The notes under the pieces: generated by a model | What the model was told of the DNA's origin: nothing | The model's database searches: none | The model's input: only the letters and a program-made list of their open reading frames with translations | Part shown: one piece after another, positions 19,395 through 29,790 of the stretch | Numbering within the stretch: the first letter of the stretch is position 1 | Layout: each line of letters begins with the position of its first letter | Virus record (IMG/VR): IMGVR_UViG_2531839235_000024 | Reading direction: 5' to 3' (one strand) | From: a virus | Taxonomy: Duplodnaviria > Heunggongvirae > Uroviricota > Caudoviricetes | DNA length: 38,024 nucleotides | Translations under genes and position numbers: made by a program

Positions 19395-20518
19395 TATTGC
19401 ATTTCCTCTTTCATTTTCAGGAACTCGGCTTCGGTTTTACCCAGCAGTTTGGCGGCCGCGATATCTTCAGCCGACAGCACAGCGGTGGCAGTCTTTTTAT
19501 CCGGCACGGTCACGGTGTCGGTCTGAAGGCCGGTCAGGGCCGCAACCGGCTGGCGGGCGTCAAGCTGTGCAGAAAGTGCCGCAACGCCAATCTGCCCGCC
19601 CAGTTGTTCCAGATAGCCGCGTTCGCTTTTGAAGATGCGCCCTTCGGATTCAGCCTTGTCCAGCACCTGCTCCAGCGTGGTGCTGCCGTGCTGCGCCGAC
19701 AGCGCAACGTATTCGGTACGCAGGGCGTTATACGTTTCAACGGGCACGTATTTCGTCAGATCAATACTGCCGCCAGCCGGTGTGCCTTTTGCGGTTTCCA
19801 GCTCTGCCGACAGACTGGCGACCTGTGTTTTCAGGTTGTCGTGTGCATCCGCACGGGTTTTGATCCCGGTGAGGGCAGACAGCGCCGCCGTGCCCAGCTC
19901 CGGCGTAAATTCGTCACCGTCAGCCACGGTCAGACCGAGCGCCGTCAGCAACTGGCGTAATTGCTCATTCATGGAGGTATCCTTTAAAGGAGGGTTTAAG
20001 GCGTTATAAAGGTCATCCGCCGACAGTGCGGCGACAGGATTCATGCCGGTCAGACCGGGGTCACCGGTAATAGCCAGCATCCGAAGTTCGACAGGTTCGC
20101 CGGTGCTCTCGTCATAGCCAATCACCGGTGAAAACCAGGGGAATTCGTTATTACGCAGATGTTCAAGGGCCGGAGGGTTCCACTTCGGGCGCACCTCGAA
20201 ACCTCGCTCTTCACTGAAGCGAAAATTCTCCGGTGAGGCCATCACAAAACCGGCAGCCGGTGCCGGATGTCCCTCAATCAGGGTCTGGTGGTTGTAGTCA
20301 ATTTTCACCGGCTGATTGAGCGCCACAACACGGGAGACCATGCGCTCAACGGTCGCACGGTTAATCAGCCAGCCTTCAGCCGGTTTTTCCGGGCGACCGT
20401 CACGGGCCTTTACCCGACCGGCTGGCATGATCTGACACCAGTCACCGTCCCCGTCTGCGGACAGGCTGATGGCATTCAGAATGGCATAAGCAAGTTTGGG
20501 CGTGTTTTTCGTCTTCAT
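19394..20518 (-). CDS. Head maturation protease / scaffold (Mu I-like; nested Z-type scaffold likely)
   Basis: 374 aa; position between G and T; Ala/Leu-rich coiled-coil C-terminal half typical of a scaffold. Confidence 0.7.
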   Translation of the reverse strand: MKTKNTPKLAYAILNAISLSADGDGDWCQIMPAGRVKARDGRPEKPAEGWLINRATVERMVSRVVALNQPVKIDYNHQTLIEGHPAPAAGFVMASPENFRFSEERGFEVRPKWNPPALEHLRNNEFPWFSPVIGYDESTGEPVELRMLAITGDPGLTGMNPVAALSADDLYNALNPPLKDTSMNEQLRQLLTALGLTVADGDEFTPELGTAALSALTGIKTRADAHDNLKTQVASLSAELETAKGTPAGGSIDLTKYVPVETYNALRTEYVALSAQHGSTTLEQVLDKAESEGRIFKSERGYLEQLGGQIGVAALSAQLDARQPVAALTGLQTDTVTVPDKKTATAVLSAEDIAAAKLLGKTEAEFLKMKEEMQ

Positions 20519-26441: not shown

Positions 26442-26732
26442 TTACCCCCTTGCGCGTGGTTTCTTCACACCCGGAACGGTGGCGCGGCCTTCCGCCACAT
26501 CCTGACCCCGGCCGGTCAGTTCAGCGATGAAATAACCATTAACGAGCGTGCGCTTACGCACCAGCCCCTGCTCGGCAAGCCAGGCAATATGAGTATGAAC
26601 GGTGTCGCGGGACACGCGGTGACCGTAATCATCCAGACAGTCCTGGAGCACGGATTCACCCAGTTCGCCGTTGTAATCCGCCAGCGACCGCAGAATGACA
26701 AGACGCTGATCTTCAGTAATGAAATCACTCAT
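26442..26732 (-). CDS. Mu gp26-like hypothetical protein (possible winged-helix)
   Basis: 96 aa; position. Confidence 0.45.
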   Translation of the reverse strand: MSDFITEDQRLVILRSLADYNGELGESVLQDCLDDYGHRVSRDTVHTHIAWLAEQGLVRKRTLVNGYFIAELTGRGQDVAEGRATVPGVKKPRARG

Positions 26733-27037
26733 TGTGTTTTTTTCCTTACCGCCTGCTCCAGCAGCAGTTCGTTCTGATAGGAGACAGAGCGGAGCGTGGC
26801 GTTCGTGGTTTTCAGTTCACCCCGCAGGGTCACGATTTCCACATTCAGACGGTTGACCTCGGCTTCTGTCGGCAGTGACGACAGGCGGGTTTCCACCTTC
26901 TCAACGCGGTCGGAGAGTTTTTCAAAGGCCTCGCGGGGGACAAACGTTTTGCGCATCAGCGCCATGAATATCCCGCCAGCGGTTGCCGTCGCCGAAAGGA
27001 TCGGCACAACATAATCTTTAACGATGCTGACCCACAT
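26729..27037 (-). CDS. Membrane-anchored coiled-coil protein (Mu gp25-like, lysis-associated)
   Basis: 102 aa with an N-terminal TM helix (VVPILSATATAGGIFMALM) followed by a coiled-coil. Confidence 0.5.
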   Translation of the reverse strand: MWVSIVKDYVVPILSATATAGGIFMALMRKTFVPREAFEKLSDRVEKVETRLSSLPTEAEVNRLNVEIVTLRGELKTTNATLRSVSYQNELLLEQAVRKKTQ

Positions 27038-27245
27038 GACGGGCCTCCATGATGTTCTGGCAGTTCACACAACGGATGGCATCCGGCACAGCAACAAGAC
27101 GTGCGGCGGGGATCTCTCCGCCACAGTCCGCGCAGACACGTCTGCCCGGAGCATCCATTGCCCGGCGCTTACGTGTCAGCCGGTTACAAAGGGCGCGTTC
27201 TGATCCCCGCTCCATCACAGCCTGAGCACGATCTGAATCATCCAT
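27018..27245 (-). CDS. TraR/DksA-family C4 zinc-finger protein
   Basis: Start taken at the internal ATG at 27245 with an AAGGAAAAAGG RBS; C-terminal CADCGGEIP...IRCVNCQ four-cysteine motif. Confidence 0.6.
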   Translation of the reverse strand: MDDSDRAQAVMERGSERALCNRLTRKRRAMDAPGRRVCADCGGEIPAARLVAVPDAIRCVNCQNIMEARHVGQHR

Positions 27246-27255
27246 ACCTTTTTCC

Positions 27256-27627
27256 TTACTTCGTCTTTCCTGCCGGAACAGCAGGCGTTCCGGCCATATC
27301 AGTAAATTCATGTTGTCGCCGCGCCTCCAGACGACGAATACTGGCCTTGTCCACGTTGCAGTTCTTGATCACCGCCAGCAGTTGCAGGTTGTAAGTGACC
27401 GATGCCCCAAACGTGAACGGCTCCGGCGCAGGAGGGACCAGGCAGTCAGCCAGCCATTCAGCGGGGATCGGCACCGGCTTCACAGGCACGTATTTCACAG
27501 ACGGCCCGGCGCACCCGATCAGCCACATCATCAGGAACAGGGGCAGAGGCCGCAGGCACTGCCGCCAGCGACCGGCGGACAACGCTCTGCTGCCCCTCGC
27601 TGTGCTGAATGTTCTGTTGTTTTTCAT
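27256..27627 (-). CDS. o-spanin (Rz1-like outer-membrane lipoprotein), overlapping the i-spanin in another frame
   Basis: Lipobox LIGC then a proline-rich mature region (PVKPVPIPAEW...PPAPEP); start at the ATG at 27627 is a guess; ORF extends past the i-spanin stop. Confidence 0.5.
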   Translation of the reverse strand: MKNNRTFSTARGSRALSAGRWRQCLRPLPLFLMMWLIGCAGPSVKYVPVKPVPIPAEWLADCLVPPAPEPFTFGASVTYNLQLLAVIKNCNVDKASIRRLEARRQHEFTDMAGTPAVPAGKTK

Positions 27628-27808
27628 TCGTGGCCGCCTCACTGATTTGTGAAATGAGTTGCAGGGTGTGCTGCTGATTTGCCAGCACCTGACGCGCCTC
27701 ATCCCGCTCACGCACAAGCACCTGATTATTGTCTTCAAGGCGCTGCGTCTTCTGGTGCATTCCCCATATAGCGGCAACCAGTACAGCGATAATCCCCAGC
27801 GCCGCCAT
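27458..27808 (-). CDS. i-spanin (Rz-like inner-membrane protein)
   Basis: N-terminal TM (AALGIIAVLVAAIWG) followed by a Gln/Glu-rich coiled-coil; start uncertain (ATG at 27808 chosen; ORF is open to 27979). Confidence 0.5.
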   Translation of the reverse strand: MAALGIIAVLVAAIWGMHQKTQRLEDNNQVLVRERDEARQVLANQQHTLQLISQISEAATNEKQQNIQHSEGQQSVVRRSLAAVPAASAPVPDDVADRVRRAVCEIRACEAGADPR

Positions 27809-27920
27809 GCACGCCCCGGCAATCAGGGCCGGTAAGGCATTATTCACCGCAGCCACAGGACACCCCGTAACAGCAGTACCGCACACAGCAGCGCTATCAT
27901 GAGCGGTCGCCAGAAGCGGT

Positions 27921-28421
27921 TCAGACTTTCGGCAAGTCGTAGCGACATAACCATTCATCCGCCGAACGGCGGGCCTCAAGGCCGGGGAGTTTCACCCCCT
28001 TTGAATAAATCCAGCGGATATACTGCTTACAGGACGCGGGCATCTGCCCGGCATTGATCAGGCGCAGAAGCGTGGAGTTGCGAAAGTTCGTTTCACCGGC
28101 CCAGAAGATCCACGAAGCCAGCGCCACCGTCTGACCACGGGTAAGCGGCACCTGAACACGCCGATCAATGGCCGCAAAGGCCCATTTCATGTCCTTTTCC
28201 AGTAGTTCCAGGCATTCTTCATCTGTCAGGGTCATACCCGGTTTCACATCCGGGCCGGTATGGCCGTAACAGATGGTGGGTGTACCGGTGGGATCGATAT
28301 ACGTGGAGTTTTCTTTCCCTTCCCAGTAACCGGTGTAATGCGTGGCAATCGTGAACGTCCCGGCACCGGCCAGAACAAGGGCAATCAGCTTTTTACGCAG
28401 TGGTGCGGGGAGTTTTGGCAT
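27921..28421 (-). CDS. lys: SAR endolysin (phage lysozyme with N-terminal signal-anchor-release domain)
   Basis: N-terminal KKLIALVLAGAGTFTIATHY hydrophobic segment followed by the lysozyme catalytic region YWEGKENSTYIDPTGTPTICYGHTG; Mu lys is a SAR endolysin. Confidence 0.7.
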   Translation of the reverse strand: MPKLPAPLRKKLIALVLAGAGTFTIATHYTGYWEGKENSTYIDPTGTPTICYGHTGPDVKPGMTLTDEECLELLEKDMKWAFAAIDRRVQVPLTRGQTVALASWIFWAGETNFRNSTLLRLINAGQMPASCKQYIRWIYSKGVKLPGLEARRSADEWLCRYDLPKV

Positions 28422-28422
28422 T

Positions 28423-28460
28423 GTTACGCTGTCTCATGATGTTCTCTGAGTCAGCGTAAC
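28423..28460. promoter_or_regulatory. Interrupted inverted repeat GTTACGCTG-N20-CAGCGTAAC immediately upstream of the lys start codon
   Basis: 9-bp perfect arms seen directly; lies in the 71-bp gap between the Mor/C-family gene and lys, where Mu carries its C-dependent lys promoter. Confidence 0.35.
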
Positions 28461-28492
28461 GGTGAAGGAGAGGCGGCAGGCTTTGCGGAATA

Positions 28493-28918
28493 TCAGAAAA
28501 GTGGCGGTTGCGTTCTTGCCAGATGCAGACGGCGCTGTTCGCGTATGACGGTATAAATCTGGGTTTCTGACATCCGGTAATGGCGGCGAAGGGATTCAAT
28601 TTTCTCGCCCCGGTCCCAGCGCGAAAATATCTCATTGTTTCGCAGCTCGGCAAAGAGAGATTCCCCGACCGGCAGGTAATAACCCCGTCCGCCCATATAG
28701 GCTGCCTGAGCCGCAGCCACCTTGCGTGCCAGTTTACCGGCCAGTACCGGCTCAATCCCCTGACGCTGAAGTTCTGCGCCGGTGACTTCAACCAGTTCTG
28801 ACAGGGTCCGCGGCCAGTTCTTTTTGAGAACATCATCAGGGATGTCATCAAGGCGGTCGATAAGGGCGTGCAGTTGCTCACTGTCACCACCAAACATGCT
28901 CATCTGAGTTTCTGCCAT
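28493..28918 (-). CDS. Mor/C-family transcriptional activator (probable late-gene activator C analogue)
   Basis: 141 aa with the C-terminal HTH pattern LRRHYRMSETQIYTVIREQRR resembling Mu Mor/C; immediately upstream of the lysis genes. Confidence 0.65.
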   Translation of the reverse strand: MAETQMSMFGGDSEQLHALIDRLDDIPDDVLKKNWPRTLSELVEVTGAELQRQGIEPVLAGKLARKVAAAQAAYMGGRGYYLPVGESLFAELRNNEIFSRWDRGEKIESLRRHYRMSETQIYTVIREQRRLHLARTQPPLF

Positions 28919-28987
28919 ATCAGCCTCCGGTTCTCGCGTTCCCGGTAAGTTTAAAATAAAAATCCCGCGTTGTGGCGGGATTTGGGG

Positions 28988-29497
28988 TTAACGGGGAAGT
29001 GATTTTTCATACTGCCTGCAAACGGCGTCATACCCCATCAGCGTGCGTTCGGGCATTCCCATCGCGGCCAGCATTTTGCGGCGGTGCCATCGCTTGAGAC
29101 GCTCCAGCACATCTGAGGCCAGGGCGGGGTGTTGCTCCAGCCACTGCCAGTTTGCCACACCTTCGCCGCCGTTCTGCGCGGCCGTCTGCGATTTCACCCA
29201 GCGGTTAAGAGCGGTTTCCGCACCATCAGAGATAAAGCCCTGCCGGTGCATCACTTTCCAGATGGCGCGAATTTTGGCGGTCACCGTACCCGGTTTTAAG
29301 GCCCGGTTAACCGGTTTCTGACGCACTTTAAAACCGCGTTTTTTGAAAACATCCAGCACGCGGGATAACTCACCGGGTGACATATCCCGGCAGCTGGTTT
29401 TGCCGGTGGCTGCCAGTAGTACGAATGTGTAGGTCTCATCATCTAGGGCAAGCTCGCGCTTTGCCACATGAATAGCGGATATCAGTTTCCCTCTCAT
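28988..29497 (-). CDS. gemA: GemA-like protein (Mu gp16)
   Basis: N-terminus ...ISAIHVAKRELALDDETYTFVLLAATGKTSCRDMSPGELSRVLDVFKKRGFKVR matches Mu GemA as I recall it. Confidence 0.7.
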   Translation of the reverse strand: MRGKLISAIHVAKRELALDDETYTFVLLAATGKTSCRDMSPGELSRVLDVFKKRGFKVRQKPVNRALKPGTVTAKIRAIWKVMHRQGFISDGAETALNRWVKSQTAAQNGGEGVANWQWLEQHPALASDVLERLKRWHRRKMLAAMGMPERTLMGYDAVCRQYEKSLPR

Positions 29498-29790
29498 GCT
29501 GTATCAACACTCCTGCTGATATGATAGATATTACTTTCCCGATCGAGCTGAACCCGATACTCCGGAGGAATCACAAAAATATTAAAACCATCATCAGTTT
29601 TTATTCTTGAGTAGTATTCCCCCTTATGATATCTGGCAAGTGCATTAATCAGAGAAGTCGCCGCCAGCCCAATCAGGTATTTTTTATGAAAAATACTGAT
29701 AACTTTCCGGCACAGCCATCGTGTAATGACGAATGCACCGAAAAACGATGTGATATATAAACACCAGAACAACTGCGAACTACTGTCCAT
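29494..29790 (-). CDS. Hypothetical membrane protein (98 aa, N-terminal TM)
   Basis: Part of an AT-rich run of four small genes with overlapping stop/start codons; hydrophobic segment LFWCLYITSFFGAFVITRWL. Confidence 0.4.
   Translation of the reverse strand: MDSSSQLFWCLYITSFFGAFVITRWLCRKVISIFHKKYLIGLAATSLINALARYHKGEYYSRIKTDDGFNIFVIPPEYRVQLDRESNIYHISRSVDTA

Follow-up and report, generated by a model that had tools for sequence, protein, structure and literature searches.

How a phage without a holin keeps its endolysin from being made too early is the question raised by the lysis cassette in a 38,024-nucleotide (nt) stretch of viral DNA (IMG/VR record IMGVR_UViG_2531839235_000024, Caudoviricetes; the whole stretch is called the window below), in which all genes of interest lie on the minus strand. 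The first gene of the cassette, lys, encodes a predicted endolysin of the signal-anchor-release (SAR) type, and its ATG at 28421 is directly preceded by an inverted repeat. The initial annotation of this DNA saw in the repeat either an RNA hairpin or a binding site for the activator encoded next to it. Considering the locus as a whole, we think that it is probably best explained as a lysis cassette of the phage Mu type with a transcript-specific gate embedded in its late promoter.

In Pfam and PHROG scans, together with the RefSeq annotation, the genes follow the order GemA, an intrinsic terminator, a Mor/C activator, a lysozyme, an Rz-like i-spanin and a LysC-like o-spanin, and continue with a TraR/DksA zinc-finger protein, a DUF2730 protein, a gp26-like winged-helix protein and gp27. 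This order matches C-Plys-22-23-23.1-24-25-26-27 of the re-annotated Mu genome, and on these matches the region is almost certainly the lysis cassette of a Mu-like transposable prophage, Mu-type and holin-less. The Mor/C-family activator gene (28493..28918, minus strand; PF08765, E = 2.8e-32) lies directly upstream of lys. Its product is 39% identical to Mu C (105 bits) and 27% identical to Mu Mor (52 bits), and by these scores is a C orthologue; a tblastn search of the window found no second member of the Mor/C family.

The inverted repeat (28423..28460, minus strand) has two arms of 14 nt each, GTTACGCTGACTCA (28460-28447) and TGAGACAGCGTAAC (28436-28423), which are 93% complementary with a single mismatch, flank a 10-nt loop and end one base ahead of the lys ATG. 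Its coordinates and its position at the start codon are those of the initial annotation, in which the arms had been taken to be only 9 bp long. It is the only repeat of such quality in the window, where 0.05 would be expected from Markov-1 simulations. An RNA hairpin abutting the lys AUG, as proposed earlier, is supported by folding of the leader RNA, which gives z = −3.9 against shuffles and a minimum-free-energy structure that pairs 28460-28423; no Rfam match above chance was found in 27800-29100. About 60 related loci from Escherichia coli genomes and IMG/VR, among them a subgroup in which the flanking activator gene is only about 83-88% identical, share the arms without any change; variation is confined to the bulge base and one base of the loop. 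Conservation in related phages, the test that the initial annotation had proposed for the repeat, is thus seen among these close loci and, as equivalent pairing, in the 13 divergent lineages described below.

Where lys transcription starts relative to the repeat was predicted by homology to the Mu late promoter Plys. A predicted activator (C) box, CCGCAAAGCC (28479..28488, minus strand), which aligns with the AATCC(C) box of Plys, stands 20 nt upstream of a predicted −10 hexamer, TACGCT (28453..28458, minus strand), the homologue of the Plys hexamer TAGACT. The predicted +1 falls at about 28447/28446; hexamer and start, placed in this way, both lie within the left arm, and the repeat spans about −14 to +25 relative to the start. 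A common layout, in which a box that closes with AATCC(C) is followed after 20-21 nt by a hexamer TAnnCT and this, after 27-33 nt, by the lys start, was present in all 17 representatives inspected, Mu included; the box of the window itself ends in AAGCC, not AATCC(C). The motif CCGCAAANCC-N20-TANNCT has exactly two matches in the window, one here (CCGCAAARCC, 20 nt, TAnGCT; 28488-28453) and one at 20560-20525, which fronts a 374-amino acid (aa) open reading frame (ORF) with its ATG at 20518, called I-like here by size and position only. At this second predicted late promoter (CCGCAAAACC, 20 nt, TATGCT; 20560-20518, minus strand), the predicted +1 coincides with the A of ATG 20518, which suggests a leaderless messenger RNA (mRNA) or a misplaced start codon.

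The register of the Mu start was inferred by aligning Plys with the Mu promoter Pmom and from statements in the literature (PMC2582627). Mu C binds a 16-bp imperfect dyad centred at −43.5, the minimal promoter extends from −60 to +8, and Pmom has the −35 element ACCACA with a 19-bp spacer (PMC2582627); the consensus of the C site is TTAT-N5-6-ATAA (PMC2582627, PMC12867686). In the alignment, the ATAA half-site falls in the same register in both promoters, and the GenBank promoter features of Plys and Pmom, both of 67 bp, correspond to −53 to +14. Both the dyad position and the extent of the minimal promoter, as published, are consistent with the inferred register (PMC2582627).

This placement bears on two other explanations of the repeat. 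In one, the true start lies upstream of it and the hairpin is a 5′ stem-loop of the late lys mRNA, which would stabilise the message or throttle its translation. The lys start is here a prediction, and a start near 28462 would put the hairpin at the extreme 5′ end, where, combined with a weak Shine-Dalgarno sequence, it would give low and delayed endolysin and could time lysis in a holin-less phage. We nevertheless regard this as quite unlikely, as the sole conserved promoter architecture sets the −10 hexamer within the left arm, no sigma-70-like promoter was found elsewhere in 26600-29600, and the Mu register is in accord with the published data given above. In the other, the adjacent Mor/C activator binds the repeat, the alternative that the initial annotation had offered. 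The repeat adjoins the activator gene, and Mor/C proteins do bind dyad-symmetric DNA as dimers (PMC2582627); C sites, however, are 16-bp dyads at −43.5, whereas the repeat is 38 bp long, abuts the start codon and leaves no room for a promoter downstream. The motif common to both predicted late promoters is the CCGCAAARCC box, which lies upstream of the repeat at 28488-28479, and it is the box, not the repeat, that aligns with Mu Plys. We disfavour the activator site and consider it the least probable of the explanations discussed here. An imperfect dyad, CTTTTCTGATATTCCGCAAAG, was considered as the activator site and dropped, the conserved part being the CCGCAAAGCC box only.

A start within the left arm would give two kinds of lys RNA, provided that transcripts also enter from upstream. 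Because the activator stop codon (28495-28493) abuts the box and leaves no space for a terminator before lys, activator transcripts are expected to run through the repeat. The position downstream of the activator gene, where other lineages have a GC-rich hairpin, could also suit an element that acts on the activator transcript, as a terminator, a target of RNase III or a structure protecting its 3′ end, and is unrelated to lys translation. Against such a function, the hairpin is not followed by a U-tract, the next bases being AAUGCCAAAACUCC, its stem is short for RNase III, and in locus L007 and Mu, where the activator gene is already followed by a canonical terminator, the lys initiation region has nonetheless retained its pairing with the −10 region; we hold such a function to be very improbable. 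The window lineage, in which no terminator fits between activator stop and box, has the strongest hairpin.

The transcript ends of the activator gene differ among relatives. Most other Mu-like lineages (L101, L103, L150, L164, L049, L181) carry a conserved GC-rich hairpin without a U-tract, e.g. CAACCGGCTGCGCTCGAGAGCGCGGGTTG, between the activator stop and the box, about 10-55 nt past the stop. A canonical terminator after the activator gene is found only in Mu and in Citrobacter-type relatives, and the window lineage has neither terminator nor GC-rich hairpin. On the upstream side, a strong intrinsic terminator (28983-28960) lies between gemA and the activator gene, with a stem, AAATCCCGC...GCGGGATTT, that resembles the activator box, and a TAAACT hexamer is located 29 nt before the activator ATG (28983-28919 region, minus strand). 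The activator gene itself may be transcribed by read-through, by auto-activation or, as in Mu, from a Pm-like promoter that overlaps the terminator.

The two kinds of RNA differ strongly in the predicted accessibility of the lys initiation region (−15 to +12), which costs 14.5 kcal/mol to open in the read-through RNA versus 3.75 kcal/mol in the RNA that begins at the predicted start. When the 18 nt around the hexamer, i.e. the left-arm region, are scrambled and the rest is left intact, the cost falls to 5.8 +/- 0.6 kcal/mol, and none of 60 scrambles reached the native value.

We then asked whether this pairing is kept across Mu-like lineages. The activator-to-lys intergenic regions of 99 loci gave 35 distinct sequences, Mu included; the useful part of this diversity came from IMG/VR, via alignments of the endolysin and of the activator, and an endolysin scan of genome contigs returned a single relative, from Citrobacter braakii. 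Because the window group and a second group of relatives, group B, differ by a one-base register shift (MAFFT, ungapped) and distant leaders are unalignable, column-wise covariation was replaced by a swap test of cognate versus non-cognate pairs. In each of 13 lineages, Mu included, the −10/+1 region pairs with the lineage's own lys Shine-Dalgarno/start region, though the sequences differ: examples of the stems are GTTACGCTGACTCA with its partner arm in the window, TTTATCCTGAGTCGA/TCGACTGAGCGATAAA in L049, CGGTTTA/TAAACCG in L103, TATCCTGTTCG/CGAACGGATA in L146 and GCCATCA/TGATGGC in Mu. The cognate duplexes have a mean energy of −12.7 kcal/mol, compared with −7.4 +/- 0.6 kcal/mol for non-cognate ones, and 0 of 36,825 derangements matched the cognate value; the result holds with five ways of delimiting the two regions and also when the two strongest lineages are left out. 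Comparison by hand of the window group with group B showed a double change, G-C to U-A, in one pair of the stem. The opening cost is higher in the long than in the short RNA for all sequences compared (16/16), and the scramble control is significant overall (11/13 lineages, Wilcoxon p = 0.0007). Shifting either region elsewhere abolishes the effect, bar one coding-region offset. This offset, a 60-nt downstream shift (lys +40 to +66, 13 lineages), gave a mean of −10.1 kcal/mol, while the other shifted controls ranged from −5.8 to −7.3 kcal/mol; it may reflect the GC-rich coding sequence of the SAR segment.

From this we infer a lys transcription start within the left arm, read-through from the activator gene and an effect of the repeat on translation, which would operate as follows. 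A single C-type activator would switch on a Plys-type late promoter, whose −10 hexamer and start region form the left arm of the repeat, the right arm being the last 14 nt before the lys AUG. Read-through RNA from the activator gene would carry both arms and fold into a hairpin that occludes the lys initiation region, whereas late-promoter RNA would begin at the end of the left arm, lack the hairpin and be translatable; that the hairpin should form in read-through RNA only follows from the left arm holding the predicted −10 hexamer and start. The gate would prevent endolysin synthesis during the first expression of the activator. An early trickle of endolysin would be harmful in a holin-less phage, which provides a rationale for a block in translation. 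The SAR endolysin, as first late gene product, would be exported by Sec and membrane-tethered, then released without a holin via the DUF2730 releasin homologue encoded downstream, after which an overlapped i-spanin/o-spanin pair would break the outer membrane. For the repeat itself, the balance of the evidence tips slightly towards such a promoter-embedded anti-ribosome-site element.

Several observations weigh against this proposal. The lys transcription start is predicted from homology to Mu Plys, and the releasin dependence of this endolysin is likewise a prediction, by analogy with Mu. For Mu itself and for L045, the scramble control shows no specific contribution of the left arm; the close relative L039 has two disrupted pairs. 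The lys gene of the window lacks a good Shine-Dalgarno sequence even when unfolded, and its translation is poorly understood. Finally, the repeat of the window is a near-perfect DNA palindrome without G-U pairs, which alone cannot separate a function in RNA from one in DNA, and across lineages the sense strand differs only weakly from the antisense strand in stability (folds, p = 0.03; duplexes, not significant).

These last points are also those that speak for the main rival, a DNA operator, at which a dimeric phage or host protein distinct from the activator would bind the palindrome over −10/+1 and keep the lys promoter shut. A near-perfect palindrome of 38 bp over the core promoter occupies a classic operator position, and lineage-specific palindromes could arise from co-evolution with the binding protein. 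A conserved protein dimer, however, fits poorly with arms that are bulged across lineages and with predicted loops of about 4 to about 23 nt. Moreover, the right arm always tracks the lys Shine-Dalgarno/start codon, ending anywhere from 6 nt ahead of the start to 6 nt inside the coding sequence, sense-strand G-U wobbles occur in several lineages, and no candidate protein is evident. We judge the operator rather unlikely and retain the promoter-embedded gate.

The enzyme to be gated (27921..28421, minus strand) is, from Pfam, alignments and hydropathy, a predicted SAR endolysin, a GH24 muramidase of the R21/Mu gp22 type. It matches PF00959 (E = 6e-37), and a catalytic triad E34-X8-D43-X5-T49 can be read from its sequence, the three columns being invariant in the alignment with Mu gp22. 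The closest solved structures (E = 1e-24) are those of R21 of phage 21 (3HDE, 3HDF) and of RrrD, and the R21 alignment spans the endolysin from residue 5 through the N-terminal SAR segment. This segment, residues 12-30 (LIALVLAGAGTFTIATHYT), is weakly hydrophobic, with a mean Kyte-Doolittle value of 1.39 and 53% Gly/Ala/Ser/Thr over the 19-residue window; the corresponding values are 1.09 and 42% for Mu gp22, and 2.11 and 63% for R21. The cytoplasmic N-terminus, MPKLPAPLRKK, places four basic residues (K3, R9, K10, K11) ahead of it. The N-terminal SAR segment noticed in the initial annotation is thus backed by homology to R21 through the segment and by hydropathy and composition in the Mu gp22/R21 range. 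As a SAR endolysin, the protein is expected to be exported by Sec, tethered to the membrane and later released without signal cleavage. In the relative L172, a tandem 9-nt repeat, (CCCCAAAAG)n, is present at the lys 5′ end from about 2501 and would insert a Pro-Lys-Ser run with many basic residues into the cytoplasmic tail of the SAR endolysin; the tail enlarged in this way is the region that sets releasin dependence in Mu (PMC9239132).

No holin-like ORF was found upstream of the endolysin, in line with the initial annotation, and the window also lacks homologues of Mu gp19 and gp20. A missing holin is what one expects, because Mu lysis is holin-less: Mu has no holin, and release of gp22 requires gp25, a releasin of the DUF2730 family (Chamblee et al, 2022; PMC9239132), with the basic residues K6 and K7 of gp22 conferring releasin dependence (PMC9239132). 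The initial annotation had missed this explanation, the corresponding gene lying downstream, outside the region that it covered. This gene, at the position of Mu gene 25 (26729..27037, minus strand), encodes a homologue of the gp25 releasin (PMC9239132) that matches PF10805 over its full length (E = 7e-20, profile positions 3-101 of 102), is 34% identical to Mu gp25 and has an N-terminal transmembrane (TM) segment, VVPILSATATAGGIFMALM by hydropathy. Membership in the family does not by itself prove releasin function, because DUF2730 proteins also accompany cytoplasmic endolysins (PMC9239132). The full-length DUF2730 protein, the lack of a gp19 or gp20 homologue and the four basic residues that precede the SAR segment nevertheless make it likely, by analogy with Mu, that the window endolysin is released in a releasin-dependent manner. 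Between the spanins and this gene, at the position of Mu gp24, lies a gene for a TraR/DksA-type C4 zinc-finger protein (27018..27245, minus strand; PF01258, PHROG 54, Mu synteny).

The i-spanin gene (27458..27856, minus strand; PHROG 214, E = 1e-32, no Pfam match) encodes an N-terminal TM segment, with a mean Kyte-Doolittle value of 2.64 over the TM window, and a helical periplasmic domain. Its start is most likely GTG 27856, a position at which ATG or GTG is kept in divergent relatives. The o-spanin (27256..27627, minus strand; PF23793 LysC, E = 2e-16, PHROGs 3001 and 456) is read in another frame from ATG 27627 to 27256 and is a predicted lipoprotein: counted from this ATG, Cys39 ends the lipobox LIGC, and PLFLMMWLIGC fits the core of the PS51257-type pattern, so that the lipobox suspected earlier is found. 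The mature part is Pro-rich (85 aa, 11 Pro). With 170 nt shared by the two genes and 202 nt of the o-spanin gene lying past the i-spanin stop, the architecture is overlapped rather than embedded, as in Mu and as described in the initial annotation. In RefSeq, lysC starts at 27498, downstream of the lipobox Cys, and the annotated 80-aa product (27498-27256) is deprived of signal peptide and lipobox, while three different starts are given for the i-spanin in near-identical prophages (142, 132 and 116 aa; region 27886-27458, locus L001 compared). No purifying selection is seen in the frame of the 142-aa extension. These are points for annotation: RefSeq truncates the o-spanin so that its lipobox is lost, and it also omits a conserved small ORF.

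The small ORF (27844..27954, minus strand) has 36 codons, or 34 from a conserved ATG at 27948, and overlaps both the 3′ end of lys and the start of the i-spanin gene. Its product, MVMSLRLAESLNRFWRPLMIALLCAVLLLRGVLWLR, would be a single-pass membrane peptide. Group B, L141 and L146 all have the ORF, with an unchanged stop position and an RGVLWL motif that is invariant, its Leu codons showing synonymous changes only. The ratio of non-synonymous to synonymous polymorphism (pN/pS) of the ORF is 0.52, versus 1.11 and 1.55 in the other two frames. An exhaustive search for homologues returned one true match (34 aa) and two repetitive false ones, and the ORF is absent from Mu-type lineages. It may be a further lysis component. 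Together with the releasin homologue (27037-26729) and the −10 hexamer within the left arm, this ORF (27954-27844) is a feature that the initial annotation lacked. A second, 14-codon upstream ORF, MRQRNNAKTPRTTA (28437-28393, minus strand), begins within the hairpin loop, runs across the lys start in a different frame and has a better-placed GAGA than lys. Substitutions in close relatives are synonymous in lys and non-synonymous in this ORF, which is not kept in group B.

The 2.3 kb around the cassette are 100% identical to the chromosomes of E. coli O157:H7 and other Shiga-toxigenic strains and were found in 231 of 5,426 complete E. coli genomes; two Shiga toxin phage records label the same DNA 'inserted Bacteriophage Mu-like phage'. 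By these matches, the 38-kb window is a Mu-like prophage of Shiga-toxigenic E. coli, where it is common, and the cassette itself is of a known, ordinary kind. What is possibly new is the regulatory logic. In a phage that has no holin, lysis is timed by the onset and the amount of SAR endolysin and releasin synthesis, and an early block of endolysin translation would be a genuine component of this clock. The pairing in 13 lineages, including Mu, makes the idea directly testable in a well-developed genetic system. More broadly, Mu-like phages, Mu among them, might share an unrecognised control of lysis, in which a promoter in the 5′ arm of a hairpin silences endolysin translation from read-through or middle transcripts and in part replaces a holin, with the small ORF of the window as a further lysis component; we put this wider proposal forward tentatively, as a possibility that we consider less probable than its opposite.

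Compared with the lysis cassette of Mu, that of the window has the same gene order and families, no holin, overlapped spanins, a DUF2730 protein two genes past the spanins, a C-type activator gene directly upstream and a homologous promoter layout. It differs in that its proteins are only 34-39% identical to their Mu counterparts, a single Mor/C gene is present instead of two, gp18-20 are absent, no terminator separates the activator gene from the promoter, and its hairpin is far stronger. Between lys and the i-spanin gene there is an additional small membrane ORF, whereas in Mu the i-spanin start overlaps the end of lys. With R21 and RrrD (PDB 3HDE, 3HDF, 4ZPU) the endolysin shares the spacing of the E-D-T triad and a SAR segment without Cys, but R21 is partnered by a pinholin and the window enzyme by a releasin homologue, and four basic residues precede the SAR segment here compared with two in R21 (R6, K7; read from the alignment). 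As in P2 LysB/LysC and other overlapped spanins, the o-spanin belongs to the Pfam LysC family, starts inside the i-spanin gene and ends past it, while the i-spanin of the window differs from that type in having no Pfam match.

In the papers searched, no description of such a gate for Mu or Mu-like phages was found. The closest parallel is gene e of phage T4, for which early read-through RNA folds and hides the ribosome-binding site of lysozyme, the late promoters being located within the 5′ strand of the fold (McPheeters et al, 1986, reviewed in PMC3014915); soc, gene 49 and I-TevI of T4 are under the same type of control (PMC3014915). Gene e and lys would have in common an inhibitory hairpin over the Shine-Dalgarno/AUG of a lysis enzyme in read-in transcripts and a late promoter in or next to its 5′ strand. 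The phages are unrelated, the promoter here would depend on sigma-70 and a C-type activator whereas that of T4 is a gp55 late promoter, and the effect was measured for gene e and is predicted only for the window. Mu itself offers a further comparison, in that another of its late genes, mom, has a dedicated translational regulator annotated in GenBank, Com. The mom start site sits in a stem-loop, which is opened by the zinc-finger protein Com, whereas for lys the proposed escape from the hairpin lies in where transcription starts. Overall, the lys hairpin is best read, from its sequence and position, as a new example of a known regulatory trick; if this is true, the principle of T4 gene e extends to an unrelated, temperate and sigma-70-dependent group of phages.

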